Positions 1 through 26,933 of a stretch of 64,000 nt of DNA are shown in pieces; position 1 is the stretch's first letter; each line of letters begins with the position of its first letter. The stretch is from Alphaproteobacteria bacterium (GTDB lineage Bacteria > Pseudomonadota > Alphaproteobacteria > UBA828). A program made the translations under genes and the position numbers. The stretch covers positions 3,744,001 to 3,808,000 of the forward strand of contig OZ243972.1 in NCBI GenBank assembly GCA_965214705.1, written 5' to 3'. The notes under the pieces are model-generated. The model worked only from the letters and a program-made list of their open reading frames with translations. It had not been told where the DNA came from and made no database searches.

Positions 1-412
1 TGCCGATCTCCGAGATCATTGGTTCGCCTCGACCGTCGAGGCCATCCTGCCATCCCGACAGGAAGCGAGACGCTTCGTCGGCGACGGCACGTTCTTCGAG
101 GGCGTCACTCTGCAGCCGCTGGCCGCCGCGGCCGGCCGGCCGCTGCACGTTCGCTGGTCCATCGAGGGCGGCCGCGTCCTCTATAGCGAATACGGCGCGG
201 AGCCCTGGACCATTCTCGGCGAGCAAGGCAGCGGGCTCAGCTTTCAGTATGCCGATTCATCGAGGCAGTGGCTCGAGCGGTGGCCGATAGAGGGGAGCCG
301 GGAGCACATCCCGCGCATGGTCCGCCTGTTGTCGGCCGACGGCCGGACCCTCTGGCTCGCGCACTTCGACCTCTACCCCGAGCCGGTCCCCAACTACCGG
401 GAGGAATTCTGA
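1..412 (+). CDS. gspJ: Type II secretion pseudopilin GspJ-like protein, 5'-truncated by window edge
   Basis: Frame from nt 2 is open (ADLRDHWFAS...LSFQYADSSRQWLERWP...IPRMVRLL...REEF*) to TGA 410-412, which overlaps the gspK ATG. Position and the F.Y...W...WP...P..VRL tail fit GspJ. Not in the ORF track. Confidence 0.65.
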   Translation, partial: ADLRDHWFASTVEAILPSRQEARRFVGDGTFFEGVTLQPLAAAAGRPLHVRWSIEGGRVLYSEYGAEPWTILGEQGSGLSFQYADSSRQWLERWPIEGSREHIPRMVRLLSADGRTLWLAHFDLYPEPVPNYREEF

Positions 413-1452
413 TGGTCGGTCGCGCAAACGCGAACGGTTTCGTGCTGGTCGTCACGCTATGGGCGCTGGCAGCGCTCGGGCTGCTCGCCACCTATATCAA
501 CCATGTGGTGGCGACCGACGTCGACCACGCCATCGAAGAAAAGCGTGCCTTCCAGGCCGAACTCGAACGGCGCAGTACGGAGTCGACGTTGATCTACCTT
601 CTCGCCACCGGACGCATGAACCATCACGCTCTGATCCTGGAAGAGGAGCAGCAGTTCTTCGATCCGAGGCGCAACCAGACGCCGTCTCCTTTCAACGTTC
701 GAGGAGAGTTGCAGGTCACCGGCGCCGCCTATGCCGGCCTTGGAGAAACCCGCTTCTCCATCCAGGACGAGGGCGGACTGATTTCGGTCAACGCGCCACG
801 CTTTCCACCATTCGCGGCCTTTCTGGAACGCATCGGGCTTGCCGAAGAGGATACACGCCAGGTCATCGCCCGGATCGACGACTACATCGACACCGACGAC
901 ACTCTCAATCTGGGTGGCGCAGAGCGTCAGGATTATCAGCGCCAGGGCAAGGCGCCGCCGCTCAATTGGATCATGTCGAGCCCGATGGAACTCGGCGACG
1001 TTCTCGGTATCGAGAGCCTGATTCCCCGGGAGAGCTGGCCGCGGCTTTGGCCGGTGCTGACGACGCGTCCCGTCTCCAACTACAACTTCAACACCATGCA
1101 TCCCGAAATCCTCGCGGCCGTTCTCGAGCTTGACGCGTACGGCGTGCGCGGCGTTCTCAACGAGCGCGAGAAGGGCCCGCTGACGCGGCAGACCCAGCTA
1201 GCCATGCTGAGCGGTAAGCATCTGGACATCGACGAAATGGAAGTGGCCGTGGTACCGTCGAATTTCCTGAAGTTGGCGGTCTGGCATGAGACCGTGGGGC
1301 CGCGCTCGGTTGTCGGCATCGAACTGACGCCGCTCGGCGAGGTGGCCCCGTGGCGCAAGGATTATCGGTACTCGGAACCTGCTCCCCAGCGCGAAGATTC
1401 GGGCATTCCCAGTGATCCTCCTCTCGAAGCTGCGACGCCTCTTCTTCGGTAA
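412..1452 (+). CDS. gspK: Type II secretion protein K (GspK)
   Basis: ATG 412 gives MVGRANANG-FVLVVTLWALAALGLLA (prepilin-like). Motifs IQDEGGLISVN, DYIDTDD...GAE..DY and NFNT are typical of GspK. Confidence 0.9.
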   Translation: MVGRANANGFVLVVTLWALAALGLLATYINHVVATDVDHAIEEKRAFQAELERRSTESTLIYLLATGRMNHHALILEEEQQFFDPRRNQTPSPFNVRGELQVTGAAYAGLGETRFSIQDEGGLISVNAPRFPPFAAFLERIGLAEEDTRQVIARIDDYIDTDDTLNLGGAERQDYQRQGKAPPLNWIMSSPMELGDVLGIESLIPRESWPRLWPVLTTRPVSNYNFNTMHPEILAAVLELDAYGVRGVLNEREKGPLTRQTQLAMLSGKHLDIDEMEVAVVPSNFLKLAVWHETVGPRSVVGIELTPLGEVAPWRKDYRYSEPAPQREDSGIPSDPPLEAATPLLR

Positions 1453-2500
1453 GCCGAACGCCATCCAGACCCAGGCCGGCGCCCGCCGGCTGTCCTTCCG
1501 GTCGTCGATGCCCAACTGGATCGTGGGCCGGGGGCTTTGCATGTTTCGCTGCGAGGACTTCAGCGCTGTTCCCCGCAGTCGGCGCCGCGCGGCGCTGGAG
1601 TTCAAGCTGCCGGTCTGGAGCCCGTTCGAGCGCACCGGCCATCACGCCGTGTGGTCCGGCGGCGTGGCCATGGTCTGGTTTTGGGACAATGACAAGATCG
1701 CCCCGGCCCGCGAGCGTTTCTCCACGCTGTTTCCCAGGACACGAGGCGGCGTTCCGGCGCGCCTTCGAACGCTGCCCGAGACGGTGTTCTACGGGCGAAG
1801 GGCGGATGGGCTTCGCCTGCAGCCCTGCGCCGACGGCTTCGAGCTGCAACGCTGGCGCGCGAACGTGCTGGCCGACTCGTTCTGGTTCCCGGCCTACCCT
1901 CAGGAGAGCCAGCTGAGCTGGTTCGTGGCGCGGCAGGAGGGCGACGGCGGGTCGCCGCCGCTGACCTTCGGAGACATGCCGGCGCCGGCAAGCGACCAGA
2001 TGGCGCGGGAACCGTGGTCCGTTTCCCTCGATCCTCAGGAGTGGTTCGCGGCGAGCGGGGGCACTCTCGCCGCCGCGTGTCTCCTCGCGCTGGTTCTTAT
2101 CGTGCTGTGGCAGGAAGTTCGCTACTGGAAGATCAGCGAGCTGGAAGAAGCCGCGGCGCGGGAGTTCGACCGCTTGCAGGAGCAGCTCACGCCGATCCTC
2201 GAGGCACGCAACGAGCTGATCGACTTGCGCCGAACGAACCAGGCGCTTCTCCAAATTCTGCAAACGCCGTCGCAGGCCCACTTGATGAGCGCGATGGACC
2301 GCGCCATTCCGAGCGCGAACGCGGAGCTACGCGAATGGCGCTACCAGCAGGGAGAGCTCACGGTATCGATCGAGGATCGGCACGCCGATCCCATCGCTTA
2401 CATCCGCGCGCTTGAGGCGGTGCCTCTGTTCACGCAGGTCAAGGCCGAACCGGGCCCCGGTCAGGATCGCCTTGAGATTACCCTGACAGTGCGGGAATGA
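1412..2500 (+). CDS. gspL: T2SS GspL/PilN-like inner-membrane assembly protein
   Basis: Follows gspK. Cytoplasmic N-domain (WSPF...WFWD), one TM helix (LAAACLLALVLIVLW), coiled coil, PilN-like C-domain (YIRALEAVPLFTQVKAE). Start uncertain. Confidence 0.65.
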   Translation: MILLSKLRRLFFGKPNAIQTQAGARRLSFRSSMPNWIVGRGLCMFRCEDFSAVPRSRRRAALEFKLPVWSPFERTGHHAVWSGGVAMVWFWDNDKIAPARERFSTLFPRTRGGVPARLRTLPETVFYGRRADGLRLQPCADGFELQRWRANVLADSFWFPAYPQESQLSWFVARQEGDGGSPPLTFGDMPAPASDQMAREPWSVSLDPQEWFAASGGTLAAACLLALVLIVLWQEVRYWKISELEEAAAREFDRLQEQLTPILEARNELIDLRRTNQALLQILQTPSQAHLMSAMDRAIPSANAELREWRYQQGELTVSIEDRHADPIAYIRALEAVPLFTQVKAEPGPGQDRLEITLTVRE

Positions 2501-2843
2501 AGGGACCGGCGCGCGCGCTTCGTCCGTTCTTCGCGGGGCTCGCCGCGAATGCCCGGCTGCGGTGGGGCGTCCGGCTTATCCTCGGCCTTCTCATCGGCTA
2601 CGCAATCCTGCTGCAGACCGAGCGTCTCGCCGCGGTCCGGAACGACCACGACGCCGAGCTCGAACGTCTCAAGAAAGCCGAGACCCTGCTTGAACAGCAA
2701 GACGCAGTTGATCTGCTCGCAACCGAGCGAGAGAACCAGCGCAAGATCAGGTCGATGTTCTGGCAGGCGGAAACCGAGGGGCTGGCACAGGCTAAGCTTC
2801 AGGCGGCGCTTGCCCAGCTATTCGGCAATTTCGGGTTGACCAA
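2497..2843 (+). pseudogene. gspM: GspM-like T2SS protein, N-terminal fragment (split by mobile element)
   Basis: ATGA overlap with gspL; TM helix then coiled coil and AETEGLAQAKLQAAL. Host sequence ends at ...TTGACCAA (2843); the ORF reads into the element and stops at 2925. Confidence 0.75.
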
Positions 2844-2847
2844 GGTT

Positions 2848-2889
2848 AAGGGTTGGGCAGGCTCTCTCTCGAGAGCCTGCCCAACCCTT
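2848..2889. repeat. Perfect 19-bp-stem hairpin at the transposase-distal end of the element (ori-like end)
   Basis: AAGGGTTGGGCAGGCTCTC (2848-2866), loop TCTC, GAGAGCCTGCCCAACCCTT (2871-2889). Confidence 0.95.
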
Positions 2890-2903
2890 TTGAACGAAGC
2901 CGC
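2890..2903. repeat. 14-bp inverted repeat, left (subterminal) copy
   Basis: TTGAACGAAGCCGC is the exact reverse complement of GCGGCTTCGTTCAA at 5496-5509. Confidence 0.95.
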
Positions 2904-3151
2904 GGGCCACGAGAGGCGAAGTTGAGCTATGTGGAAAGTGCGCTGATGTCAGCGTCAGGCGGCATCCACCGGCAGCAGAGTTGCGCATAAAATCGACGCT
3001 CGCGCCGGTCTTTCGGCAGGCATGCGGGCGCACGCTGCGAGGACTGAGCGGGGTGTGAGCCGAGGGCTGTCAGCCCGGCTCAAGCGGAGACAGGTTCGGT
3101 CGTGCGTCGGCGCTTTGGCGCCGTTGCGCGGGGCCGAAGCGAGCGGGCGTC

Positions 3152-4393
3152 TCACGGTTTCCCCCTGTGGGTCGGCGGCAGCGCCGGCGGGCCGCGCGTC
3201 GAGCGGGGCTCATGGCGGCGGCGGATTTCGCGGACGAGGCGCATGACGCCGCCGCAGTGGGGGCAGGCCACGGGCGCGGTGCCGATCTCGGGCTCTTCGT
3301 CGGGCTCGGCCCGAGCGCCGTCCACGCTTCCCTCGGGGGCGGCGCAGCCGAGGGCGCCGAGAGCCTGGCGTGCTCTCTCCAGCGTGCTGGCGCGGCAGCC
3401 GTTGGCGAGGATGCCGAAGTAGCGAATGCGGTGCATGCCGTCCGGCAGGACGTGCCTCAGGAAGCGGCGGATGAACTCGTCGGCGCTCACGGTGGCGATG
3501 CCGTAGCGCGGCTTTCTCTGCCCCGGCGCCTTGGGCTTTCGGTGGCGGAAGGAGACCGTCTCGCCGTCGAAGGAGACGATGCGGCTGTCGGAGATGGCGA
3601 TCCTGTGCGTGTAGTGCGAGAGGTACCGGAAGACCTGCTCAGGCCCGCGGAAGGGCCGCTTGGCGTAGACCACCCAGTCCCTGGCCCGGGCGGCGGCAAG
3701 CGTGGCGTGGAACTCGCCGGGATTGGCGAGGTGGGCGAGGGTGCCGTGGAACTCCAGGTCCCCCCGGCCGTGGGCGCGGGCGAGCTCCTCGAGGAAGAGG
3801 CGGCGGAACAGGCTGCCGAGGACCTTGACGGGGGCGAGGAAGGTGGTGCTCCCCGTCTTCCACTCGCCACTGTCTACGTCGAAGCCCGCGTTGGGCACGA
3901 CCACGTGCAGGTGCGGGTGGAAGCGGAGCTTCTGATCCCAGGTATGGAGGACCGCGGTGCCGCCGATGCGCATGCCGCCGTGGCGGGGATCGGCGGCGAT
4001 GGTGCGCAGGGTCTCGGCGACGGCCCGGAAGAGGATGTCGAACACCACCCTGCGGTTGCAGAAGGCAATGGCGGCAACCTCCTTGGGCAGGGTGAAGACC
4101 ACATGGAAGTAGGGCACCGGCAGGATGTCCCCGGCGCGCTCCTCGCTCCAGAGGTTGGCGGCGAGACCCTGGCAGGTGGGGCAGTGGCGGTTGCGGCAGG
4201 AGTTGAAGAGCGGATGCTCGCGCCCGCAGCCCTCGCAGGCGTACATGTGGCCGCCGAGCACGGCGGTGCGGCACGCCTCGATGGCGCCCATGACCTTGAG
4301 CCGGGCGGCGTCGATGCGCCCTTTGTGGCGCTCACGGAAAGCGGCGCCGGCGCGGCGGAAGATCTCCGCCACGCCCGCGCGTTCGGCCTCCAC
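3152..4393 (-). CDS. IS91-family transposase (zinc-binding N-domain + Y2 HUH domain)
   Basis: CEGCG...SCRNRHCPTCQ zinc motif, YFHVVFTLP, LHTW...HPHLH (HUH), YLSHYTHR (YxxxY), FIRRFLRHVLP.G.HRIRYFGILAN, C-terminal CPHCGG. Confidence 0.95.
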   Translation of the reverse strand: MEAERAGVAEIFRRAGAAFRERHKGRIDAARLKVMGAIEACRTAVLGGHMYACEGCGREHPLFNSCRNRHCPTCQGLAANLWSEERAGDILPVPYFHVVFTLPKEVAAIAFCNRRVVFDILFRAVAETLRTIAADPRHGGMRIGGTAVLHTWDQKLRFHPHLHVVVPNAGFDVDSGEWKTGSTTFLAPVKVLGSLFRRLFLEELARAHGRGDLEFHGTLAHLANPGEFHATLAAARARDWVVYAKRPFRGPEQVFRYLSHYTHRIAISDSRIVSFDGETVSFRHRKPKAPGQRKPRYGIATVSADEFIRRFLRHVLPDGMHRIRYFGILANGCRASTLERARQALGALGCAAPEGSVDGARAEPDEEPEIGTAPVACPHCGGVMRLVREIRRRHEPRSTRGPPALPPTHRGKP

Positions 4394-4399
4394 GCGCCG

Positions 4400-5278
4400 T
4401 CAGTTGCGCAACGCTGCGAAGCCTGAGATCGGGTGGTCGAGGCCCTCGAACATCTTGCCGGTGACGCGGGCGTAGTGACGGGTCGTGTTCGCGCTTCGAT
4501 GGCCGAGCATGTCCCGGATCACCTCGATATCGCCGCCGCGCTCGAGGAGATGGGTCGCCGCCGAATGGCGCAGGCAATGGAAGGTGTAGCTGCGGTCGAG
4601 CTCGGCAATGTCGCGCGCCCTCCTGAAGGCGGCCTGCAAGGTCTCCGTTGCGATGGGCCTGTCGAGCGAGACGCCGTAGAAGAGCCAGCTCGTCGGACGC
4701 GGCCAGATGTTCCTGTAGTAGACGCGCAAGTAGTGGATGACGATGTCCGGCAACGGTGCCATTCTCTCGGTGCCGCCTTTGCCGGAGGGGATGTGCAGCA
4801 GCTTCTTCTCCGACAGGATGTCGCCGACCTTGATGGCCAAGGTCTCGGAGATGCGGAGCCCGCCGCCATAGCCGGTGACAATGGCAGCACGGTGGCGGAG
4901 GTCGGGTGTCGCAAGGATGAGGTGCTCGACCTCCTGCTCCGACATGTAGCGCGGCAGCTTGCCGGGCTTCTTGCGGGAGCGCAGGCCGGCGACATGGTCA
5001 GGCCAGCCGAGTGTGTCGATGTAGAGGAAGTTCAGCGCGGCGAAGGAGACGTTGGTCGTGCCCGGACTGAGCCCCTTGTCGATCCGCCCCAGGTACCACT
5101 GGCGCACCTGCTCGGCGTCGAGCTCGTCCGGCGAGGCGTCGTAGTACCTGGCCAGGTTCTTGATCTCGCAGATGTAGGCCTTGGACGTGCTCGCGGCCAG
5201 ATTGGCGATGCGGAGCTGCTCCTCCATGCGCTGGCGAAGAGGGGTGACGGTGTTCGTGTCGCACGCGGTCCCGGTCAT
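4400..5278 (-). CDS. Tyrosine recombinase/integrase (XerC/D-like) paired with the IS91 transposase
   Basis: Catalytic set intact: GLRISE, GKGG, HCLRHS, LGH, TTRHYA. N-terminal SAM-like domain starting TPLRQRM. ATG 5278 preferred over the track start 5440. Confidence 0.93.
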   Translation of the reverse strand: MTGTACDTNTVTPLRQRMEEQLRIANLAASTSKAYICEIKNLARYYDASPDELDAEQVRQWYLGRIDKGLSPGTTNVSFAALNFLYIDTLGWPDHVAGLRSRKKPGKLPRYMSEQEVEHLILATPDLRHRAAIVTGYGGGLRISETLAIKVGDILSEKKLLHIPSGKGGTERMAPLPDIVIHYLRVYYRNIWPRPTSWLFYGVSLDRPIATETLQAAFRRARDIAELDRSYTFHCLRHSAATHLLERGGDIEVIRDMLGHRSANTTRHYARVTGKMFEGLDHPISGFAALRN

Positions 5279-5495
5279 TATCGATCTCCCTGGATCGCGA
5301 CGGCGCGCCGCCGGACCGATCCGGCGACGGTCCGTCGCAGGGGTCGATGCTAACCACTGGTGATCGGGAGGCTGCTGGGGATCCGCCACCCGACGGGCGG
5401 AGCGCCACTGACGCAACCGGGAAGCGAACGCACAGAACAAACGGCACCCGCGACGCCTCGGAAATGAATGAACTCTACGCCGCTAACTCCGCGTA

Positions 5496-5509
5496 GCGGC
5501 TTCGTTCAA
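5496..5509. repeat. 14-bp inverted repeat, right (terminal) copy, overlapping a 7-bp hairpin
   Basis: GCGGCTTCGTTCAA; GCCGCTA (5479-5485) can also pair with TAGCGGC (5494-5500). Confidence 0.9.
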
Positions 5510-5756
5510 TACCCATTTCCGGTCGGGCTCAGGCCAACCGGTCCCTGACTTGCCGGGGATTTGGAGAATACAAGTCCGCATGGATACCAATTACCGGCCG
5601 GGACTGGAGCTTCGCATACTCCATGCTCTCGCGACCCATCCCAACAAGCTTATCGTCGATCGTCTCGATCTCAAGCGCCACAATCAGAACGAGGCCTATC
5701 TCGTCCTTATCGTTTCATCCTACTTCGTGGGCGTGGCCACACAGGAAACTAGCTGA
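5510..5756 (+). pseudogene. gspM: GspM-like T2SS protein, C-terminal fragment
   Basis: (N)THFRSGSGQPVPDLPGIWRIQVRM...KLIVDRLDL...YF...* joins the N-fragment in frame (347+247=594 nt, 197 aa). Confidence 0.75.
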
Positions 5757-7014
5757 AGAAAGCGAAATCCTCGGTATTATTGAATGGGAAGCGCAGGGCG
5801 CCGGCCGTGTGCTCGATGCCGAGGTAGCGGCGCAGCGCCTTGTGCACGTGCTTCGGGTAGATGATCGTGCCGTAAGTGTCGTCGCGGCGGAGCGTCGCCG
5901 GGTCGATCTTGTAGGCGAAGTGCAGACCGTCCGTCTCGCCCACCGCGCGCCCGGTCCATGACCGGTTCTTCTCCATGACCACGTAGCTCCCGATCGGCCA
6001 GTGATCCTTGCCGTTCACCGAGTTGTAGAAGTTCGTGCGCCCGAAGTCAGAGCCGATCACCACTACCATGCGGTCGGCCACGCCGTGCTCCTCGGAATAG
6101 TCCCAGAGATAGTCCACCGCATCGGTGAGGTTCTCGAACAGCCACCTATGCGGCGGGTCGTGGTTCGTATGGGTATCGAAGCCGCCGAGCCAGAGATCGG
6201 CGCTCACCGCGACGCCTGTCTTGAAGGCCAGCACCGTCAGCTGCGCCTGCCGGCGCAGGGAGCTGCGGTTGTCTTGCGTTTCCACCGGTTGCTCGAGCTG
6301 GTCCTCCGGCGGGATGGCATCGGCATAGGCCTTCAGCCCCTCGGCAGCGAAGGAGGAGCCATAGAAGCCTAGATGCATCTCATCCCCCGGCAGCAGGTCC
6401 GGGGTCTCAGAAAGACGCGCCACCGTCGCCGCCCGGTGCGACGCCATCGCCTCCCAGTCCTCATCGCTGAAGAACGACCCCATGTCGTCGATGGGAGAGG
6501 CGATCTCGTGCAACAGACGCGGGTCGTCGAGGCGGGTGAAGCGGGTCAGGCCTGCGGTGTTCGAGAAGCCGCCGAAGCTGAGATAAGGCACCGGAAGGGT
6601 CGGGGCATAGTGGGCGGCGCATAGCGCGCCCAGCGTCGGATAGCCCTCGGAGTTCCGCCCGCTCCAGTTGTGGACGATGCCGACCGAGTGCGCGTTCGTC
6701 TGGGCGTCGACGCCGTTGATGACCAGCATCATGCGGTTATACTTCTCGAAGAACGCTTGGTTGCCGGCGAAAGGGGCATAAGTGAGGTTGCCGGCCTGGC
6801 GGATCTCATCGGTCTCCGCCCAGTGGTTGATGACCTTCTCGCCCGGTGTATTGGCCTTGGGGTCGCAGAAGCTGGTGGGGTCCCAGCCGCCGTCGGCCTG
6901 AACGAAGACGAAGAGCTTGCCGGAATGGTCTGCGGCATGGACCAGCGGCAGGCGGAACCCCGGCGCCGCAGCGGCGAGGGCCAGCAGACCCTTGAGCACG
7001 GAGCGTCGGTTCAT
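5749..7014 (-). CDS. DUF1501 family protein with Tat signal
   Basis: MNRRSVLKGLLALAAAA twin-arginine signal; motifs DGGWDP, GGFDTH, SDFGRT, GKDHWP. Confidence 0.85.
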   Translation of the reverse strand: MNRRSVLKGLLALAAAAPGFRLPLVHAADHSGKLFVFVQADGGWDPTSFCDPKANTPGEKVINHWAETDEIRQAGNLTYAPFAGNQAFFEKYNRMMLVINGVDAQTNAHSVGIVHNWSGRNSEGYPTLGALCAAHYAPTLPVPYLSFGGFSNTAGLTRFTRLDDPRLLHEIASPIDDMGSFFSDEDWEAMASHRAATVARLSETPDLLPGDEMHLGFYGSSFAAEGLKAYADAIPPEDQLEQPVETQDNRSSLRRQAQLTVLAFKTGVAVSADLWLGGFDTHTNHDPPHRWLFENLTDAVDYLWDYSEEHGVADRMVVVIGSDFGRTNFYNSVNGKDHWPIGSYVVMEKNRSWTGRAVGETDGLHFAYKIDPATLRRDDTYGTIIYPKHVHKALRRYLGIEHTAGALRFPFNNTEDFAFFS

Positions 7015-7023
7015 CCCGGCCTC

Positions 7024-9501
7024 CTACAGGTAAAGATACCGGTAATCCATCAACAAGTACGACAGCACCACAACCCATGCCCGCGCTGAATAGTGTACGT
7101 CGGAATAGTTTATACTGTTTATGTAGGCGTCCACGCGATCCCCGTCGAACTCAATAGAGGGTCCCCATTCATTCTGCCGCTCCTGCAAGATATCGTCCAA
7201 AATTCCGTCGAAAAAGTACTTGTCTTCCCAAAATCTACAATCCCAGGGATTAAACCAATCACTTTCCGAACTGGAGCGGCGCTCCGTAACGTCGATAAAC
7301 AACTCAAATGCGGAGTTTACCTCTGGCGAATGTGGCATTACCTCAACGCCCAGAAGTTTGTCATACAGCTCGACCAGCTTGTTCCTAATTGCAGTCGCAC
7401 CGCCGCCAGAAAGTGTTTCATCCAGCACTGCTATTTGCAGCTGCGCAACGTCATCACCAACTTGATCTGCCCGCGCCACGAGTTCAAGCGTGTAGTCTCC
7501 GGCGGCTGAGACTTCGATTGGCGCGTCCACCGAGCCGCTGCAGTGAAGTGCGAAGTGGTCATAGACCGGATGATTGCAATCGCTTACGGGTTCCAGGTTT
7601 TCGAGCTCGTAACTCGCGACAATCCGGCCCGTGGCGTCTCGAATGTCAAGTCGATCCAGACGAACGTGGCGTCCCCTGTCAGATTCGTGATCGTACCAGG
7701 AGTTAAGAAAGCTCATTCTCACCGTGCTGGTGCCCGCCGGCAACGATGCTTCCAGCGAATACGTTTCCCATTCGTCTTCGGCCTCGACATGAAAGAAAGC
7801 GACGTCTCCTTGGTTAGGTATCACATTCGCATCGAAGCCAGCGAACAACTTGCGATCCTCATCCGGCAACAGATAAAGCTCGCGCAGGACTACGGGACAA
7901 CTCGTTCGCACAGCGTGTCTCTTGGCTACACCGGCCATGACAGACGTGATATCCCGCGCTCGTTCGGTGATCCCGTCAGAGTCGATACCGCCGTACAGCA
8001 GGCCAAAAGCCCCGGTCAGTTCATTTGGCAAAGCGTCACAATCGCCCCCGCAGCCGGTATCGACATGCCTACCCCACTGAAAACCAGTTAGAGCGTCCGT
8101 TTTGTGTGCCAACTCCTCAGGTGTCAGCAGGCGTCGGGCGCCCGCATCGCGCAGCGCGACCTTGCGCACCGGGTCCTCGTAGCCGAGCGCATCCGCCCGG
8201 AACCACTTGGAGAGCACAATCTCGACCAGGAGGTCCTTGAGATTGTACCGCGCTCCATAACGGAAGCCCTGCCGGAACCCCGCCGCAAGCCGCCTCACTT
8301 CGGCGCTCTGCGAGTTGGCGGCGAGAAGCTGGCCCACGAAATCGGGGTCACCCTCTTCCGCTGGCGGCTCCGCGACCTCGCTCCCCATGAGCGCCGGCCA
8401 CCAGAACCTGACCGTCGCCTCGGCGAAGCGCGGGTCTGCGACGATCTTCCGCGCAAGCCACTGCAGACCGTCCTCGCCGTCTGGCGCCAGTTCACCGCCG
8501 AAACCCGGAGTCCGCATGTCGCGGTACCACGTGTCCCCCTCTTCGTAGGGGTTGGGGATGACTGCTAGCCTAGCGTAGCCATCATCGCCATAGCGCTCAT
8601 CGTACCCGTTCGACCAGGCAGCCACTTCAACGGTGTAGGGGCCATGTTCGGGAACCTCGACGTCGATAAGAATTTCGCATTCGTAATAATCCCCCCACAG
8701 TCTGAAGTAATCTTCGCGTCCGGTGTCGGGATTACGTGGCTTATCTCCACACACGCCCCAAGACGCGACCGGCGGGACCAAGTCCTCGAACTCCACACGG
8801 GTCACCCGCCGACCCAGCGAATCGAGGACATCCAGACGGTCGAGATACACCTCCCCACCCTCTCGGGCGGCTTCGTCCCAAAAGTGGTTCGGGCGGGCCA
8901 CTTTCAGCTTCTGGATGCCGGCGGCAAGGAACAGCGGCCAACTCAGCGTTACCCGGTCTCGCCAGGAGGTTGTTTCGACATTCAGCTCGGTTCCGAGCTC
9001 TTTTTTGTAGAGTTCATGAAGCGAATCCATGCCGCCCCACTGGTCCTTGTAGAATCCTTCATCGCCGTAGTCTTGGAACGCCCCGGCAACGGGGTCCATG
9101 ACGGTGTGGCAGACGGTGCAGGCGGGGTTGCGCATGGTCGGGTTGTTGGTATCAGCCAAGGCAACCGGGTCCATGGTTCGCGAGGCGGAGTTCTCGATGT
9201 CCACGCCGAGGAAGTGATAGTAGGTCCAGCGCGCCCGCGCCCGGTTGCGGTTGGTGGCCGTCGTGGGATAGCGGAACAGGAATGAGGTCGTGTTGAGCAC
9301 GCCGGCGTACGGATAATCGGTCCGCAGGGAGCCGGGGTCCAAGACACGGGTAGCAAGAAGAGCGGGGTCATATTCGTCCTTGTAGTCTTCACCCCTTCGA
9401 TAATACTTGGAGATCTTCGACGGCTTGAACTCGTGCCAATCTTCAGGATCGTTGAATCTCGTCGTAGCCCCATAGGCTCTGGCCGCAAATGGATTGGCCA
9501 T
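7024..9501 (-). CDS. C-terminal half of a frameshifted giant secreted protein (DUF1588-like heme-motif core, two putative carbohydrate-binding inserts)
   Basis: AGVLNT..FLFRYPTTATNRNRARARW and NPACTVCHTVMDP..GAF; RRLLTPEEL; ends YLLMDYRYLYL. The frame is open upstream of ATG 9501 to the G8 run at 9714-9721. Confidence 0.75.
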   Translation of the reverse strand: MANPFAARAYGATTRFNDPEDWHEFKPSKISKYYRRGEDYKDEYDPALLATRVLDPGSLRTDYPYAGVLNTTSFLFRYPTTATNRNRARARWTYYHFLGVDIENSASRTMDPVALADTNNPTMRNPACTVCHTVMDPVAGAFQDYGDEGFYKDQWGGMDSLHELYKKELGTELNVETTSWRDRVTLSWPLFLAAGIQKLKVARPNHFWDEAAREGGEVYLDRLDVLDSLGRRVTRVEFEDLVPPVASWGVCGDKPRNPDTGREDYFRLWGDYYECEILIDVEVPEHGPYTVEVAAWSNGYDERYGDDGYARLAVIPNPYEEGDTWYRDMRTPGFGGELAPDGEDGLQWLARKIVADPRFAEATVRFWWPALMGSEVAEPPAEEGDPDFVGQLLAANSQSAEVRRLAAGFRQGFRYGARYNLKDLLVEIVLSKWFRADALGYEDPVRKVALRDAGARRLLTPEELAHKTDALTGFQWGRHVDTGCGGDCDALPNELTGAFGLLYGGIDSDGITERARDITSVMAGVAKRHAVRTSCPVVLRELYLLPDEDRKLFAGFDANVIPNQGDVAFFHVEAEDEWETYSLEASLPAGTSTVRMSFLNSWYDHESDRGRHVRLDRLDIRDATGRIVASYELENLEPVSDCNHPVYDHFALHCSGSVDAPIEVSAAGDYTLELVARADQVGDDVAQLQIAVLDETLSGGGATAIRNKLVELYDKLLGVEVMPHSPEVNSAFELFIDVTERRSSSESDWFNPWDCRFWEDKYFFDGILDDILQERQNEWGPSIEFDGDRVDAYINSINYSDVHYSARAWVVVLSYLLMDYRYLYL

Positions 9502-9566
9502 GATGTAGTCGGCCGTCAGGATCTCCGTGTACGGAAGATCGTTCTCGACAATATGGGCAATCAGCT

Positions 9567-12224
9567 CTACCGGTGCTCGTCGGAAGCCATGTTGGACTTG
9601 GTTCCACCAATTCCAGTATGACGCCCAGTCATCACTCTCAACTGCAAGCTTCGTACGTCTGTAGCTCTCATTGACGAAGTCAACAAAGAATCCCGCATTT
9701 GGATCAATGACGGCCCCCCCCTGTCCGTCAGCAGTCTGTCATTCGCGCCTCGGATGAGGAAGTCGTGGAACTCTGGTCCGGTCATCATGTTGCGGATGGT
9801 GGAGCGCAGCGCCGTCGGGCTGGCATAGATCGAGGCGTACTCTTCATCCGTCGGGATGCGGCCCGCGAATATCAGCGCCGCGCGGCGAAGCGTCTTGCGC
9901 AACGGCGCCATCTGCACAGGATCGAACAGCGTCTCAACCGTGATCACCGCTGGCACAACGTCCGCATCCAGACGGCCAAGGAACTGCTCCATCTGCGCAA
10001 AGTCCGCAGTCCCCGCCAGCACCTGCGCACCGCCCCCGTGCGACACACCCTGGATCTTGCTCAGGATGAGAGACGCCCCACTTTCGACCTCCGACAGGAA
10101 GGCCTCAAAGACCTCCAGGTTCAACGCCTCGTGGTCAGGCGTCGTGGACGGCACGAACACCAGCCGCGTGTTCCCCGACACGCCGCCTTCCACATGGCAG
10201 GCAATGCACTTCGACTGAACCACAGCCTCAGAGATGTGCTGGCTGAACAGAGCAGAAGGTCCGTCCAGATGCTCAAGGAACCGCTCCATCTGCGCGAAGT
10301 CCCTGCTCCCCGCCGGCACCTGCTCGCCGCCGCCATGCGACACACCCTGGATCTTGTTCAGGATGACCGAGGTCCCGCCCTCCATCTCCGACAGGAAGGA
10401 GGCGAAGGCCTCCAGGTTTAACGCTTCGTGGTCAGGCGTCGAGGAGCGCTCGAACACCAGCCGCGTGTTCCCGGACACGCCCCCCTCCACGTGGCAGGCG
10501 ATACACTTCGACTGCACCACAGGGCCAGAAATCCACTGTCCAAACACCGCCGCAGCCGTCGCCGTGTCCCCAGACCCTCCCGATGCGTCCGCCAGCAGGC
10601 CAAGCGTGGCGTTCGGTGCCGTCGACAGGTTCGCGAGATGCCCGCTCGGACCAGACAGCAAGTTCATCACCTTAAGACGCCGGTTCGCACTCACCCCCAG
10701 GTGCCATTCCCCATCGCCATCGCCGAGCGAGCCGGAAAGCCTGCTCCCCGTGCCCTCTTCGAGATCAGACACCGTCACCTCACGCGACGCGCCCGCCGCC
10801 AGCGTCAGCTGCACCGCGCCGCCAGCCATCGCGCCCGTGCCGTCAACCCCCCGGATGATGATCTCCGCCTCCGTCGCCGAAGGATTGATCAGCCGGAGCT
10901 TCCCCGTCTGCCCCGGTGTCTCCGCCGCATCCAGCAGCGTCACCTGATGACCCCACGCCCGGCGCGGCACCAGGTCGTGCATCGCCGACAGAAGTCCGTC
11001 CTGAACCCCCAGCGGGTGGACATAGGAGAGAACCGCAATGTCGAGAGAGGTGCTCAGCCGCAGCCGCCAGTCCCCGCTGCCCGCGCCCGTGCCCACGGGA
11101 AGTCCCTTGCCCGAGCTGCCCCCCTCAAGCTCGCCCGAGTTGATGACGAGGCTTTCCAGCGCGCTGAGCCGCAGCGTCACCGGCCCGTACGACGTGCCCG
11201 TGTCGTCGACCGCCTCGATCTCCACCCGGCCGAACTGGTCCGTGCGGTTGACGATGCGCAGCACGCCTTCGAGCTCCGTGCGCGAGGCCGAGGGGAACAG
11301 CCCCACCGTGTGGATCGTCGTCGCCCCGTCGCCGCCGTCCACCGCAGCAACCGGACCGCTCGACAGGTTGCTCATCGCCCCGCTGCTCGAACTCACCAGC
11401 AGGTTCATCACCGCGATCGGACGGTCCGCCGTCACAATCAGACGCCACCGACCCGACCCATCGCCGAGCGACCCGCTCAGACCATCGCCGTCCCCCGTCT
11501 CAAGCTCGGACGCCGTGACCATCCGCGACGCCCGTGCCGGTAGAGACAGGCGCACGGCTCCACCCGGCGAGGCGCCCTCATCATCGATCCCCTCGATGGT
11601 CACCGCCGCCGCCATAGCGCCGGGGTTGATCAGGCGCAACCGGCTCACCTGCCCGGTGGTGCTCGCGGGATTGAACAGAGCGATCCGGTACCCCGAGCCG
11701 CCCTGCCGCACCACGTCCTGCATCCCGCTCACCAGACCGTCCTGCGTCCGGGCGTAGGACAAGACCTCGATATCCAGGGTGCTGCTCAGCTCAAGGCGCC
11801 AGGCTCCTGTGCCCGCGCCGATGCCCGCGCGGAAGCCCGTCTCCGCATCGCCCTCCTCCAGATCGCCGGCATCGAAATGCACCGTCTCGCCCGCGCCGAT
11901 ATCCAGCGTCACCGGGCCATGGCGCAGGCCGGCGTCGTCGTAGGCCACGATGCTCACCGTGCCCGCCGACATCGCATGATTGATGATGCGCACATGGCCG
12001 ACGCTGCCCGTCGCCGTCGACTGCGTGAGAAGCGGCACCGTGAGCGTAGAGGACGCACCTGTCGAGGTCGTCGCCGTGCGATCAACCGCGCCATAAACAA
12101 ACGCAGCGGACACGCAAAGAACTCCGGCGAACACCACAGGGATCGCCAGAGACTTGCGCAGGCCTCGTATCAGTCGCCACGGATGTAGCCCCGCGACCGC
12201 AGCCAGCCATGTTCTTGCCAGCAT
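9567..12224 (-). CDS. N-terminal half of the frameshifted giant secreted protein: signal peptide, four beta-rich repeat modules, two CxxCH domains
   Basis: Sec-like signal (RKSLAIPVVFAGVLCVSAAFVYG), A-B-A-B modules of ~115 aa, 2x QSKCIACHVEGG...HGGG, then TLRRAALIFAGRIPT...ANDRLLTD. The last ~48 codons are off-frame read-through. Confidence 0.75.
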   Translation of the reverse strand: MLARTWLAAVAGLHPWRLIRGLRKSLAIPVVFAGVLCVSAAFVYGAVDRTATTSTGASSTLTVPLLTQSTATGSVGHVRIINHAMSAGTVSIVAYDDAGLRHGPVTLDIGAGETVHFDAGDLEEGDAETGFRAGIGAGTGAWRLELSSTLDIEVLSYARTQDGLVSGMQDVVRQGGSGYRIALFNPASTTGQVSRLRLINPGAMAAAVTIEGIDDEGASPGGAVRLSLPARASRMVTASELETGDGDGLSGSLGDGSGRWRLIVTADRPIAVMNLLVSSSSGAMSNLSSGPVAAVDGGDGATTIHTVGLFPSASRTELEGVLRIVNRTDQFGRVEIEAVDDTGTSYGPVTLRLSALESLVINSGELEGGSSGKGLPVGTGAGSGDWRLRLSTSLDIAVLSYVHPLGVQDGLLSAMHDLVPRRAWGHQVTLLDAAETPGQTGKLRLINPSATEAEIIIRGVDGTGAMAGGAVQLTLAAGASREVTVSDLEEGTGSRLSGSLGDGDGEWHLGVSANRRLKVMNLLSGPSGHLANLSTAPNATLGLLADASGGSGDTATAAAVFGQWISGPVVQSKCIACHVEGGVSGNTRLVFERSSTPDHEALNLEAFASFLSEMEGGTSVILNKIQGVSHGGGEQVPAGSRDFAQMERFLEHLDGPSALFSQHISEAVVQSKCIACHVEGGVSGNTRLVFVPSTTPDHEALNLEVFEAFLSEVESGASLILSKIQGVSHGGGAQVLAGTADFAQMEQFLGRLDADVVPAVITVETLFDPVQMAPLRKTLRRAALIFAGRIPTDEEYASIYASPTALRSTIRNMMTGPEFHDFLIRGANDRLLTDRGGPSLIQMRDSLLTSSMRATDVRSLQLRVMTGRHTGIGGTKSNMASDEHR
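9714..9721 (-). other. G8 homopolymer at the frameshift point
   Basis: Eight C on the + strand. G9 would read DRGGAVIDPNAGFF...ELIAHIVENDLPYTEILTADYIMANP and fuse the two ORFs. Confidence 0.9.
9968..10522 (-). repeat. Tandem duplication (297-bp period) of a cytochrome c-like domain
   Basis: CGACACACCCTGGATCTTG occurs at 10041 and 10338; both protein copies read VVQSKCIACHVEGGVSGNTRLVF...TPDHEALNL...KIQGVSHGGG..DFAQME.FL. Confidence 0.95.
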
Positions 12225-12270
12225 CCTAACCTGCCAGCATCTCAACCGACCCGGCCCATAAAACCACTAG

Positions 12271-12482: not shown

Positions 12483-13684
12483 GGAAGGTCTGATCAAGTC
12501 GGGTGTGCCATGATTTGCGCATGAGTCGCGGATTGGATGATCGTGTCATGGCACAGGCAAGCTTTGCGGAACTGGAGCACGAGATGAAGAAGCGCCGGAC
12601 GCGGCGCGAGCTGTTCCTTGAGAAGATGGACAAGCTGGTTCCGTGGGAGCGGCTGGAACGACGGATCGAGCCGTTCTATCCGAAGGCGGGGCGCGGTCGG
12701 CGCCCGTACCCGCTTGGGGTGATGCTGCGGGTTCACTGCGTGCAGTTGTTCTACAACCTGAGCGATCCGGGGATGGAGGACCTGCTCTACGAGGTGGAGT
12801 CGGTGAGGCGTTTCGTGGGGCTGCGCCTGACGGAGGCGCTGCCCGACGAGACCACCATCCTGAACTTCCGGCATCTGCTGGAGAGGCACGATCTGGGCGC
12901 GGGTCTGTTCGAGGAGATCAATGCGCACCTGGCATCGCGCGGCCATCGGCTGCGCACGGGGACGATCGTTGACGCGAGCATCATCGAGGCGCCGTCGTCG
13001 ACGAAGAACCGGCGCCGGGCACGGGACCCCGAGATGCGTCAGACGAAGAAGGGCAAGCAGTGGTATTTCGGGATGAAGGCGCACATCGGGGTGGACGCCG
13101 GGTCGGGTCTGGCGCACAGCGTGGTGACGACGGCGGCCAACGCAAGCGACGTGACGCAGGCGGGAGCGCTGCTGCATGGCGCTGAGACGACGGCGTGGGG
13201 CGACGCGGGCTACCAGGGGGTGGAGAAGCGGCCTGAGCACCGGGATGGCGGTGTCGAGTGGCGTGTGGCGATGAAGCCGGGGCGGCGGCGGCTTCTGGGC
13301 GAGGGCGGCGCCGAAGCGGCGGCGGAGACGCGCAAGGCGTCAGTGCGGGCGAAAGTGGAGCATCCGTTCCTGTACGTGAAGCGGCACTTCGGCTACGCCA
13401 GGGTGCGCTACCGGGGCGTGGCGAAGAACAGGCAGCGCATCGCGTTGCTGCTGGGGTTCTCGAACCTGCTGATCGCCGGCCGCTACGCGACGCAATGACA
13501 GGGGAGCAGGTTGCCCGCTGCGGGCGGGACGGCGGGGAAGGAGGCGGATCGACACGGATATCACCCGTTCGCAACGCATCCCGCGACAAAAGCAGCCCCC
13601 GGCCCGTCGGCAATATCGTCGAGCTTCAAATCCAAGCTGCCTCTCCCCCTCGAAGCCGAGAAGATGGGGTTGTTCAGACTTTCC
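12483..13684 (+). mobile_element. IS5-family insertion sequence (1202 bp)
   Basis: TIRs GGAAGGTCTGATCAA / TTGTTCAGACTTTCC (13/15 match); flanks CTAG (left) and TTAA (right). Confidence 0.92.
12548..13498 (+). CDS. IS5-family DDE transposase
   Basis: KRRTRRELFL, YNLSDPGMED, PDETTILNFRHLL, IVDASII, WYFGMKAHIGVD, GDAGYQG, RAKVEHPF. ATG 12548 preferred. Confidence 0.96.
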   Translation: MAQASFAELEHEMKKRRTRRELFLEKMDKLVPWERLERRIEPFYPKAGRGRRPYPLGVMLRVHCVQLFYNLSDPGMEDLLYEVESVRRFVGLRLTEALPDETTILNFRHLLERHDLGAGLFEEINAHLASRGHRLRTGTIVDASIIEAPSSTKNRRRARDPEMRQTKKGKQWYFGMKAHIGVDAGSGLAHSVVTTAANASDVTQAGALLHGAETTAWGDAGYQGVEKRPEHRDGGVEWRVAMKPGRRRLLGEGGAEAAAETRKASVRAKVEHPFLYVKRHFGYARVRYRGVAKNRQRIALLLGFSNLLIAGRYATQ

Positions 13685-13887
13685 TTAACGTGAACAGGCC
13701 CTACCGGAACGGCGGCGAATAGAGGGCGCCGCGTCTGCTTTCGATCGAGTGTCCGGCGGTTGCCTCAGGACCGCTCTCCCCATAACATCCTGCCGCCCGG
13801 CACACGAGGAGGCCGGGCCATGATCGAATCGGCGCGTCGTCGAGCCCGAGCGGCCCGGCGTGCGCCTCACTGCGTGGGAGAGTGGTG

Positions 13888-15930
13888 TTGACAGATTATC
13901 TGGTCGGAATCGACGTCGGAGGCACGTTCACGGATTTCGTGAGCTACAATTCTGAGACCAGGGCGGTCGATGTTTGGAAGATCCTGTCGACGCCCCACGA
14001 CCCCAACGAAGGCATCCTGGGCGGGCTCGGGCGCTTCGAGGCGCCGTCGGACATCCGCAACATCAGGCTGGGGACGACGGTGGCGACCAACGCGATCCTG
14101 GAGCGCAAGGGCGCGAAGGTCGCCTACGTGACCACCGAGGGCTTTCGCGACATCCCGTTCATCCAGCGGGGCAACCGGCGCAGCCACTACGACATCACCT
14201 GGATCAAGCCGAAGCCGCTGGTCAAGCGCCGCAACTGCTACGAGGTGAACGAGCGGATCATGTCCGACGGCACGGTGCACGTGCCGCTCGACGAGGACGG
14301 GGTCCGCGCCATCGCGCAGCAGATCAGGGAGGAAGGCTCCATCGAGGCGGTGGCGGTCAACTTCCTGTTCTCGTACGTGACGCCGGATCACGAGCGGCGC
14401 GCCAAGGAGATTCTGGAGGAGGAGCTGCCGGATATCCCGATCTCCATCTCCTACGACGTGCTGCCGAAGTGGAAAGAGTACGAGCGCGCGTCCACCACCA
14501 TCGCGGACGCCTACGTCAAGCCGGTGGTGAACAGCCAGGTCGCGAACCTGCGCGAGCGCTTCAAGGGGAGCGGGGTGACCGACCAGGCCGTGGTCATCAA
14601 GTCCAACGGCGGCGAGATGACCCTGGAGGCGGCGCAGCGGACGCCGATCCAGATGACCGTCTCCGGCCCGACGGGCGGGGTGATCGCGGGCAAGCATGTC
14701 GCCAAGCTGAGCGGGATCAGCCACCTCGTCACCCTCGACATGGGCGGCACGTCGACCGACACGTCGACCATCGTGGGCGGGCAGGAGAACTTCACCACCG
14801 ACTACGAGGTGGAGTTCGGCGTCCCCATCCAGATCCCCATGATCGACATCCGCACCATCGGCGCAGGCGGCGGCTCCATCGCCTGGATCGACAAGGGCGG
14901 CATGCTGCGCGTGGGGCCCGAGAGCGCCGGCGCGAACCCCGGCCCCGCCTGCTACGGCACCGGCGGCGAGCGCCCGGCAGTGACCGACGCGAACCTGCTA
15001 CTGGGCCGCATCAACCCCGAGAACTTCCTGGGCGGCGAGATGGCCCTCGATGTCGCGGCGGCCGAGAAGGCGATCGCGACCGTTGCCGAGCCCTTGGGCC
15101 GCACCGCCGAGGAGACCGCACTCGCCATCGTGCAGATCGCCAACAACAACATGGTGGGCGCGCTGCGCTCGGTGCTGATCGAGCGCGGTCTCGACCCGCG
15201 CGACTTCGCGCTATTGGCCTTCGGCGGCGCGGGGCCGCTGCATTCGGCCGACCTGATGAACGACGCCGGCATCCCGTCGGGCGTCATTCCCAACTACCCC
15301 GGCCAGTTCTCGGCCTTCGGCTTCATCCTCACCGATGCCCGCGTCGACGTGCAGCGCACGGTGCAGATGACCTCCAAGCGCTTCGACCAGGCGCGGGCGT
15401 CGGAGGTGATGCACGCGCTGATCGAGACCGGCATCGCCGAGCTGAAGGCGCAGGGCTACGTCAAGAACATCGAGATCTACCGCTCGCTGGAGATGCGCTA
15501 TCTCGGCCAGAACTACGAGCTGGAGATCCCGGTCGCCTTCGATTCCTTCACCGACGAGACCACGCCCAAGGTCTGGCAGGCGTTCCACGACATGCATCTC
15601 GCGCGTTTCGGCTTCAACATCCCGCGCGAGGTGATCGAGGTCATCACGGTCAAGGCCACCGTGGTCTCGCTCACCGAGAAGCCCGATCTCGCCACCATCG
15701 GCAAGGCCGACGGCGAGCCCGAGGTCGTCTCCACGCGCTCGGTCGTGTTCGACGACGGGCGCCACGACACGCCGATCTACAACCGCGCCCAGCTGCGCGA
15801 CGGCCACGCGATCACCGGGCCTGCGGTCATCGAGGAGCCGGTCTCGGTGACCGTGCTGCGCCCAGGCCAACCCATGAAGGTGGATCAGTACGGCAATCTT
15901 CTGATCGGCCGCATCGCCGAGGAGTCCTGA
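13888..15930 (+). CDS. hyuA: Hydantoinase A / 5-oxoprolinase family ATP-dependent subunit
   Basis: GIDVGGTFTD, GTTVATNAILERKG, SGPTGGV, DMGGTSTD, IGAGGGSIA, AFGGAGPLH. Start TTG 13888 or GTG 13882/13885. Confidence 0.93.
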   Translation: MTDYLVGIDVGGTFTDFVSYNSETRAVDVWKILSTPHDPNEGILGGLGRFEAPSDIRNIRLGTTVATNAILERKGAKVAYVTTEGFRDIPFIQRGNRRSHYDITWIKPKPLVKRRNCYEVNERIMSDGTVHVPLDEDGVRAIAQQIREEGSIEAVAVNFLFSYVTPDHERRAKEILEEELPDIPISISYDVLPKWKEYERASTTIADAYVKPVVNSQVANLRERFKGSGVTDQAVVIKSNGGEMTLEAAQRTPIQMTVSGPTGGVIAGKHVAKLSGISHLVTLDMGGTSTDTSTIVGGQENFTTDYEVEFGVPIQIPMIDIRTIGAGGGSIAWIDKGGMLRVGPESAGANPGPACYGTGGERPAVTDANLLLGRINPENFLGGEMALDVAAAEKAIATVAEPLGRTAEETALAIVQIANNNMVGALRSVLIERGLDPRDFALLAFGGAGPLHSADLMNDAGIPSGVIPNYPGQFSAFGFILTDARVDVQRTVQMTSKRFDQARASEVMHALIETGIAELKAQGYVKNIEIYRSLEMRYLGQNYELEIPVAFDSFTDETTPKVWQAFHDMHLARFGFNIPREVIEVITVKATVVSLTEKPDLATIGKADGEPEVVSTRSVVFDDGRHDTPIYNRAQLRDGHAITGPAVIEEPVSVTVLRPGQPMKVDQYGNLLIGRIAEES

Positions 15931-26776: not shown

Positions 26777-26933
26777 GGTCCCTCCCGGCGCGGGATTGTT
26801 CCCGAGGCTCAGGTGTCGTGCAAGCGGGCGGGTCCGTCCGCGTCGGGCAGGAGACCCCGCACCATGGTGCGGTGGCCGTGGGCACCGGCGGGCGCCACGA
26901 TGCGCCGTTTCGTCCGATACGAAAGGAGTCATC

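Follow-up and report, generated by a model that had tools for sequence, protein, structure and literature searches.

The 64,000-nt stretch analysed here (hereafter the window) covers positions 3744001-3808000 of contig C1 (GenBank OZ243972.1, assembly GCA_965214705.1) in the genome of an alphaproteobacterium, G000, which has 7.9 Mb, 67% G+C and three contigs. We read the beginning of the window as the right end of a horizontally acquired mobile cassette of about 34 kb, which carries a type II secretion system (T2SS) together with a giant haem-motif protein and its twin-arginine (Tat) partner of the DUF1501 family as the most likely cargo, and which has decayed in this strain. We give this reading a probability of roughly 55%. 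It draws on the gene content, breaks, pairing, neighbourhood conservation and acquisition pattern observed across genomes, and on predicted folds. Ordinary metabolic genes lie beyond the island, which ends in the window with the following genes:

2..412, plus strand: 3' part of gspJ, minor pseudopilin, its start lying upstream of the window (PF11612 T2SSJ, 16.8 bits, under the cut-off)
409..1452, plus strand: gspK, minor pseudopilin (PF21687 T2SSK_1st, 27.9 bits, cut-off 26.2)
1412..2500, plus strand: gspL-like gene, 362 aa, recognised by lying between gspK and gspM and by one hydrophobic segment about 2/3 along
2497..2840, plus strand: 5' part of gspM, the first 114 codons being gspM-like; the frame resumes at 5507
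5507..5756, plus strand: 3' part of gspM, whose stop TGA (5754-5756) overlaps the DUF1501 stop (5749-5751) by 8 nt
5749..7014, minus strand: DUF1501-family protein, 421 aa, twin-arginine signal (PF07394, 64.4 bits, cut-off 27)
7024..12224 (or 12245), minus strand: giant PSD/PSCyt3-type gene, frameshifted, made of two open reading frames (ORFs), 9567..12245 and 7024..9501, that are one gene
9714..9721, minus strand: G8 run (C8 on the plus strand) at the frameshift; G9 restores the frame

The linkage of this pair to its T2SS recurs in other genomes. Calling a T2SS subtype close when its GspL is at least 64% identical to that of the window, we found giants beside the T2SS in 7/7 loci with a close subtype (6 genomes, four phylum labels), and the arrangements differ. 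The giant is convergent with the T2SS at L016 as in the window (copy A), while in a second copy of the island in G000 (copy B) giant-DUF1501 stands upstream of gspC. L009/L011, which is one Binatia-labelled chromosome, has three giants flanking both T2SS ends, and G092 has three giants, then a convergent gspM. At L010, on a Defluviicoccus-labelled contig, the genes run giant-DUF1501-gspO-E-F-G-H-I-J-K-L-M on one strand with a 56-nt gap, and the same one-strand order is found at L081 with a 99-nt gap; L081 was the only locus retrieved from a metagenome-contig scan with the GspL profile, a scan that reaches few relatives (the profile finds 422 protein clusters in the protein database).

The giant family is large, with at least 1,698 matches at E<=1e-3 among 7,996 candidates scored (1,606 cluster representatives), and its pairing with DUF1501 is nearly constant. 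In 68 of the 69 loci holding the giant 3' end, a DUF1501 gene starts at most 300 nt downstream on the same strand (median gap 15 nt), the sole exception being L063 with a gap of 2,247 nt; the pair is a unit. Giants or other members are found outside the Planctomycetes-Verrucomicrobia-Chlamydiae (PVC) group, as in genomes that bear the labels Gammaproteobacteria, Binatia, Acidobacteriota and others, and the genomes and sequencing runs carrying the family have sponge, coral or marine metagenome labels. All 20 giant-bearing genomes tested (20/20) had a GspL-type or T2SSG match, a count that includes kin that are not independent and groups in which T2SSs are common. Ten 'longest contig' lengths recur in both the list of giant matches and the list of GspL matches, a hint that further pairs may be co-located. 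We also observed three T2SSG matches on three contigs of G058, the genome of L016, which may hold multiple cassette copies, like G000.

The distribution of the island among relatives suggests acquisition. Neither the giant nor the window-type GspL was found in any of 40 relatives of G000, 20 of them of the same genus (0/40), and a T2SSG match was absent from the same-family genomes searched (0/24). Among relatives of the Defluviicoccus-labelled genome, 1/25 had T2SSG, and that locus gave only distant GspG/GspO matches (30-40% identity). As the relatives have no T2SSG, giant or GspL of this kind, the T2SS and its neighbours appear to have arrived together in lineages otherwise without a T2SS. 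Judged from these sequences, co-transfer of a T2SS with its probable cargo is supported for one subclade, and to this extent the original proposal of an accessory T2SS that would display a haem-containing complex is partly supported.

The genes on the T2SS side were assigned over the window and the 18 kb upstream of it on C1 (L001). There the order is gspC, gspD, gspO, a transposase, gspE, then gspF, which a DDE transposase gene (620 aa) interrupts, and gspG, H, I and J. Pfam scores of the core components were 148 bits for Secretin (with Secretin_N), 427.6 for T2SSE, 93.9 for T2SSF, 76.9 for Peptidase_A24 and 120.3 for T2SSG in GspG, and N-methylation motifs are present in GspH, GspI and GspJ; the full gspJ ORF, at L001:17825-18412, has the prepilin form of this motif. 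GspK scored 47.6 bits against NCBIfam GspK, under the cut-off of 130, and the ATG at 409 is its likely start since homologues align from residue 47 of the ORF 268..1452. No match to the gspL-like gene was found in Pfam or NCBIfam, and its protein is 64-93% identical to the counterparts at L016, L009 and L010. The 3' part of gspM is 57-82% identical to gspM 3' parts at other loci, and the uninterrupted homologue in L016 has 197 aa (NCBIfam GspM_XpsM, 27 bits, under the cut-off of 60). GspC and GspL have no family match, GspC, GspL and GspM being assigned by order, size and hydrophobic segments only. The order G-H-I-J-K is kept in L009, L010, L016 and L081. By its sequence, the system is a divergent, Xps-like T2SS with the order gspC-D-O-E-F-G-H-I-J-K-L-M.

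The giant protein is composed, from its N-terminus, of a signal peptide, four beta-sandwich modules resembling the sensory rhodopsin transducer of Anabaena (ASRT), two CxxCH modules and a helical core that holds a third CxxCH and two inserts resembling carbohydrate-binding modules (CBMs). Its N-terminus has a hydrophobic signal in which no lipobox was seen. In the AlphaFold model, the four beta-sandwich modules occupy residues 68-540 with a predicted local distance difference test (pLDDT) score of about 90, confirming the repeated beta modules of the original prediction. Their best structural matches are TM1070 (1nc7_A; Z 10.5, root-mean-square deviation (rmsd) 2.8, 101/116 residues) and ASRT itself (2ii7_A; Z 9.0, rmsd 6.0, 101/112 residues), the next row having Z 6.0. 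In one homologue, P0040, Pfam DUF5719 matched with 26.9 bits, and some homologues have weak DUF5719 or ASRT matches. De Souza, Iyer and Aravind (2009, PMC2739507) describe the ASRT/TM1070 superfamily as predicted sugar-binding, with extracellular versions; here four tandem copies head a haem-motif giant, which differs from that superfamily as described. A Foldseek search with the N-terminal part gave only generic immunoglobulin (Ig)/macroglobulin-like tandem matches.

The two helical CxxCH modules cover residues 564-760. Cytochrome_CBB3 gave a local sequence match to the giant (E 1e-3). In the giant of the window, two CxxCH motifs stand at residues 581 and 680, and the PSCyt3 region holds the other. 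The first is kept in 43/43 and the third in 42/42 aligned homologues (for the PSCyt3 region, 42/42 rows of A2 and 21/22 of A1), while the second haem module is a duplication found in only 19/43 rows. Therefore, the three CxxCH motifs claimed originally are all present here, but only two are family-wide. We also observed a local match of the copy B giant (P0001, residues 551-664) to NCBIfam RoxC, annotated as 'putative rubber dioxygenase', with 38.5 bits against a cut-off of 900, which probably reflects merely the shared c-type haem module.

The helical core was modelled with pLDDT 85.3 and a predicted template modelling (pTM) score of 0.80, and PSD4 and PSCyt3 match it weakly. It holds the third CxxCH together with two beta-sandwich inserts that are homologous to each other. 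The PSCyt3 (PF07627) score is 25.7 bits in the window and 26.1 in copy B against a cut-off of 27, and PSD4 (PF07631) reaches 19.7 bits in copy B against 23.3. In P0040, both families score above these cut-offs (31.6 and 23.6 bits), and many giant homologues carry a precomputed PF07627 annotation. The DUF1588-like core proposed before thus finds its counterpart in this PSCyt3/DUF1588-like match, though it lies under the cut-off. The two putative CBM inserts proposed with it were also recovered, as the two homologous sandwiches of the model. The second insert gives a CBM60 (PF16841) match over the cut-off of 28.2 bits (28.6 in the window, 30.6 in copy B, 40 in P0040) and, by fold (model residues 703-843), matches CBM/PPC-type sandwiches with Z 7-9.9 (8pxt_A, Z 9.9). 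Foldseek of the helical core against the Protein Data Bank (PDB) gave only spurious long alignments (TM score <= 0.11), and the matches listed by a wide fold search all fell on one beta-sandwich insert. A predicted complex of the giant core (A2 residues 1-606) with DUF1501 (residues 28-421) scored 0.00, which gives no verdict and speaks neither for nor against such a complex.

The 3' half of both giants (window 7024..9900; C1:2004218-2007000) has 47-60% G+C in a genome of 67%. A recent foreign patch was considered for this low-GC half and rejected, as copy B shows the same dip. The 3' half is also the part most divergent between the copies, with 63-72% nucleotide identity in several 300-nt bins versus 90-98% in the 5' half and DUF1501.

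The twin-arginine DUF1501 gene of the original prediction was confirmed by its PF07394 score, the Pfam alignment covering only profile positions 238-349 of 390, and by a motif of the RR-x-x-L-K type in 15/15 aligned N-termini. The Pfam TAT_signal score is 19.5 bits, under the cut-off of 22.7. PF07394 belongs to the alkaline-phosphatase-like superfamily; the D/H clusters DTH, SDF and KDHW are invariant, as would be expected of an alkaline-phosphatase-type metal site. A solved relative of DUF1501 was not found in the PDB by sequence or profile search. The host G000 has TatC and cytochrome c assembly genes.

Considering this gene content, we infer secretion by this T2SS, haem binding, sugar binding and chemistry along the following lines. 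The giant would be exported by Sec, and c-type haem would be attached at the conserved CxxCH in the periplasm. DUF1501, as a putative alkaline-phosphatase-superfamily metalloenzyme, would be exported folded by Tat, and the T2SS would then move the giant and/or DUF1501 across the outer membrane. Outside, the four ASRT-like and two CBM60-like domains might keep a glycan in place as the substrate of a redox and/or hydrolytic reaction. Such a system would be dedicated to this cargo, with surface display, haem loading and glycan binding by the giant.

Accessory T2SSs with neighbouring cargo include the Pul T2SS with PulA and the Hxc T2SS with LapA, and the Pseudomonas aeruginosa phospholipase PlcH is an example of secretion by Tat and then T2SS. 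The order giant-DUF1501-gspO… of L010 and L081 recalls that of E. coli, yghJ-pppA-…. As with E. coli SslE (YghJ) and T2SS-beta, the gene of a large protein adjoins, or is co-operonic with, an accessory T2SS, the cargo role here being a proposed one. SslE is described as secreted by a dedicated T2SS in PMC5012682 and PMC3707838. The giant differs from SslE in that it appears not to be a lipoprotein (no lipobox), is not a zinc protease, has a Tat-exported partner and occurs in one to three copies per T2SS. The route proposed for DUF1501 would resemble the one of P. aeruginosa in which a folded Tat substrate is secreted further, out of the cell, as reported for some Tat-exported proteins in part of PMC4899797; here this is suggested by the Tat motif and by a T2SS lying next to the gene.

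The system is in decay in this strain: gspM and gspF of copy A are broken by insertion sequences (ISs), its giant has lost one G (G9 to G8), and copy B has neither gspM nor the 3' half of gspL. The transposable elements of the window are the following:

2841..5506, minus strand: mobile element of 2,666 bp that splits gspM, with a hairpin at 2848..2889
3152..4393, minus strand: IS91-family Y2 transposase (PF04986, 184 bits; PF14319, 104 bits)
4400..5440, minus strand: tyrosine recombinase (PF00589, 114 bits)
12503..13498, plus strand: IS5-type DDE transposase (PF01609, 101.7 bits; PF05598, 65.3 bits), at or near the right island edge

Alleles were also read from contigs of the sequencing runs X1, X5, X6 and X7, in which rare variants drop out. 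In one X5 contig (depth 13.4), position 2840 is followed at once by 5507, with 30 letters on the shorter side, which is the empty site. As gspM is uninterrupted there and in L016, the 2,666-bp element is an insertion. This IS91/integrase element underwent a massive expansion in the genome: 68 near-full-length copies with 97.9-100% identity are present in G000 (32 on C1, 22 on C3, 14 on C2), and the depth of the element contig is about 900 versus about 14 in the flanks in X1, being about 65-fold over the flanks in both X1 and X6. With gspF and gspM both IS-broken, the copy A T2SS has at least two broken core genes. The layout originally described, with gspJ-K-L-M ending head-on with the pair in an 8-nt overlap, was right as to the genes and the overlap; it overlooked the breakage of gspM and gspF in this strain, as gspM is split by the element and only its 3' fragment overlaps.

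The frameshift of the giant is also real. The gene has a single break, at the G8 run; were the run G9, translation from the ATG at 12224 would yield about 1,733 aa, in agreement with the frameshifted protein of about 1730 aa first noted. C8 was found in contigs of X1 and X6, from two studies, and one more C in contigs of X5 and X7, the X5 contig with the extra C having 264 nt and being otherwise identical to the window. An assembly error at the homopolymer was rejected because X1 and X6 contigs have the same C8, X1 being possibly the source sample. Intact alleles exist elsewhere, as the X5 and X7 contigs have G9 and X5 has an uninterrupted gspM. Homopolymer tracts are classic slipped-strand switches and both tract lengths occur in nature (C8 in X1 and X6, C9 in X5 and X7), so the run could instead be a phase-variation switch turning the giant on and off. 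We consider this very improbable: one tract length was seen per run (0/11.3 depth in X1, 7.16/7.16 in X5, though contigs drop rare variants), the same strain also has the IS breaks in gspF and gspM, and the run is absent at that place from paralogue B and from other homologues. As only a single length was seen within each run, we read G8 as a one-off inactivating mutation.

Copy B of the island, at C1:1991572-2009486, is rearranged and has the order intact giant, DUF1501, ApbE fragment, gspC-D-O-E-F-G-H-I-J-K with gspF intact, and truncated gspL. Its giant, P0001, has 1,747 aa, and the IS91/integrase element that splits gspM in copy A also interrupts the gspL of copy B, near residue 196. The T2SS DNA of the two copies is 97-100% identical, whereas the giant/DUF1501 unit is 83% identical overall (63-98% along its length). 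In G000, no T2SSG gene beyond 2, no DUF1501 beyond 3 (one of them a fragment) and no intact gspM were found, and all 3 DUF1501 matches stand beside the only 2 T2SS copies. The third is a remnant at C1:3724648-3725280 that matches residues 214-420 with 88% identity, on the far side of copy A. At C1:3723785-3725280, some 19 kb to the left of the window, a P4-type integrase-like ORF runs into this DUF1501 3' fragment, with two transposases behind it; probably we see here the left island end in degraded form and a relic of another giant/DUF1501 unit.

Between the DUF1501 remnant and gspC, we also observed a trio of ApbE, DUF3570 and AhpC/TlpA-like thioredoxin genes (L001:2587-5478; C1:3728587-3731478), which might serve the giant/DUF1501 pair as helpers in maturation or redox reactions. 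To the right of the island are hydantoinase/oxoprolinase A and B genes (window 13882..15930 and 25034..27061), and to its left (C1:3716554-3720668) are ORFs whose N-termini are hydantoinase-like by eye only; the island may have landed in or near a hydantoinase locus.

Several points weigh against the cassette reading. A genome-contig scan for giant relatives gave 233 matches, of which the best 80 were used (72 loci, 59 records by title). Within the fetched flanks, some of them on short contigs, gsp genes were found at only 4/72 of these best-matching loci (3/59 genomes), namely L009, L011, L010 and L016, which hold the closest giants (66-71% identity). The expectation that such pairs are enriched next to gsp clusters thus found weak support when starting from the giants and strong support when starting from the close T2SS subtype. 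In 7 gammaproteobacterial genomes with a GspL 41-59% identical, no giant core or DUF1501 was found within about 15-20 kb of the T2SS; these genomes do hold giants elsewhere. The 7 linked loci may be descendants of one ancestral linkage spread by transfer and thus not independent. Since most family members are not T2SS-adjacent, a strictly dedicated system is argued against. The ApbE-DUF3570-TlpA-like trio adjoins giant pairs about as often as the T2SS does, at 5/72 other loci that have no T2SS (L015, L024, L027, L032, L071) and in both own copies; because this trio is an equally frequent neighbour, adjacency alone is not T2SS-specific. As for the protein itself, both own copies score under the Pfam cut-offs of PSCyt3 and PSD4, the haem modules are modelled at moderate confidence (pLDDT 55-88) and they resemble a cytochrome fold weakly, PccH being the best match with Z 4.8. 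Finally, in part of PMC5615132 the PSCyt proteins of Verrucomicrobia are predicted to be periplasmic or cytoplasmic.

Some of these points can be explained considering that the T2SS and the giant/DUF1501 units share a mobile island without any functional tie, the T2SS secreting other proteins or nothing specific. The 68/72 best-matching loci without gsp genes in their flanks and the 7 gammaproteobacterial genomes with unlinked giants are as this explanation would have it, as are the many IS elements of the island and the rearrangement that sets its copies A and B apart; moreover, the T2SS of L081, G044 and G052 has other large, secreted-looking proteins as neighbours. On the contrary, the adjacency persists through several arrangements and four phylum labels, two loci have the genes on the same strand with gaps of 56-99 nt, the recipient lineages are otherwise without a T2SS, and every DUF1501 copy of G000 is beside a T2SS copy. 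We therefore regard hitchhiking as the less likely explanation, while leaving it some weight.

A different possibility is that giant and DUF1501 are a periplasmic enzyme pair acting on imported oligomers and never crossing the outer membrane, as proposed for planctomycete and verrucomicrobial PSCyt/DUF1501 proteins. The predicted PSCyt localisation in that part of PMC5615132 would agree with this, and members lacking the beta-module stalk are found in genomes labelled Acidobacteriota, Bryobacterales and Entotheonella, from which this T2SS subtype is absent (0/6). The Ig-like stalk and the six putative sugar-binding sandwiches are instead features typical of surface or secreted proteins, and the genome acquired the unit along with its only T2SS, so that we consider a purely periplasmic role unlikely. 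A T2SS cassette carrying the pair as its probable cargo is consequently the reading that we retain.

We also noticed that the ASRT-like pair of beta modules is found in three unrelated large secreted-looking proteins beside this T2SS type: a 1,836-aa FGE-sulfatase protein (L081:12997-18507), a 2,454-aa protein with fn3, cadherin, leucine-rich repeat (LRR) and leishmanolysin domains (L088:8876-16240, in G044), and an 821-aa protein whose C-terminus carries the modules (L093:7765-10230, in G052). The GspL type is present in 7/9 unlinked genomes, and in all 6 linked ones, whose giants have the modules, and in 0/6 genomes whose giants do not, a comparison confounded by taxonomy. It is a doubtful but attractive idea that the cassette moves between phyla in marine host-associated communities and gives recipients without a T2SS a surface oxidative/hydrolytic glycan machine, the ASRT-like module pair being a mark of the cargo or a hold on the surface. 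If true, this would be the first localisation of, and the first functional handle on, the PSCyt/DUF1501 family, unexplained since 2004-2012.

The pairing of PSCyt with DUF1501 was already known and unexplained, according to part of Kamneva et al. 2012 (PMC3542564). As in the PSCyt/PSD and DUF1501 modules of Planctomycetes and Verrucomicrobia, described in passages of PMC3542564 and PMC5615132, two genes encode a CxxCH multidomain protein, often with carbohydrate-binding domains, and a DUF1501 protein, often with a twin-arginine signal. In the modules described in those passages the partner of DUF1501 is PSCyt1/PSCyt2/PSD1, whereas here it is PSD4/PSCyt3-like at threshold scores; the giant also differs in having an ASRT-like stalk and CBM60-like inserts, in occurring outside PVC and in being tied to a T2SS in one subclade. 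A full-text literature search did not find 'DUF1501' tied to 'type II secretion' in print.

In conclusion, PSCyt/PSD and DUF1501 proteins are abundant in several phyla and their role is unexplained, as far as the parts of PMC3542564 and PMC5615132 drawn on here state, and a subclade that travels with its own T2SS suggests that these proteins act outside the cell. A cassette like those of L010 and L081 is compact, about 20 kb. In the strain of the window, the system is a wreck left by IS expansion. The spread across phyla, among genomes and runs with sponge, coral or marine metagenome labels, suggests a transferable trait that serves life on the glycans of a host.

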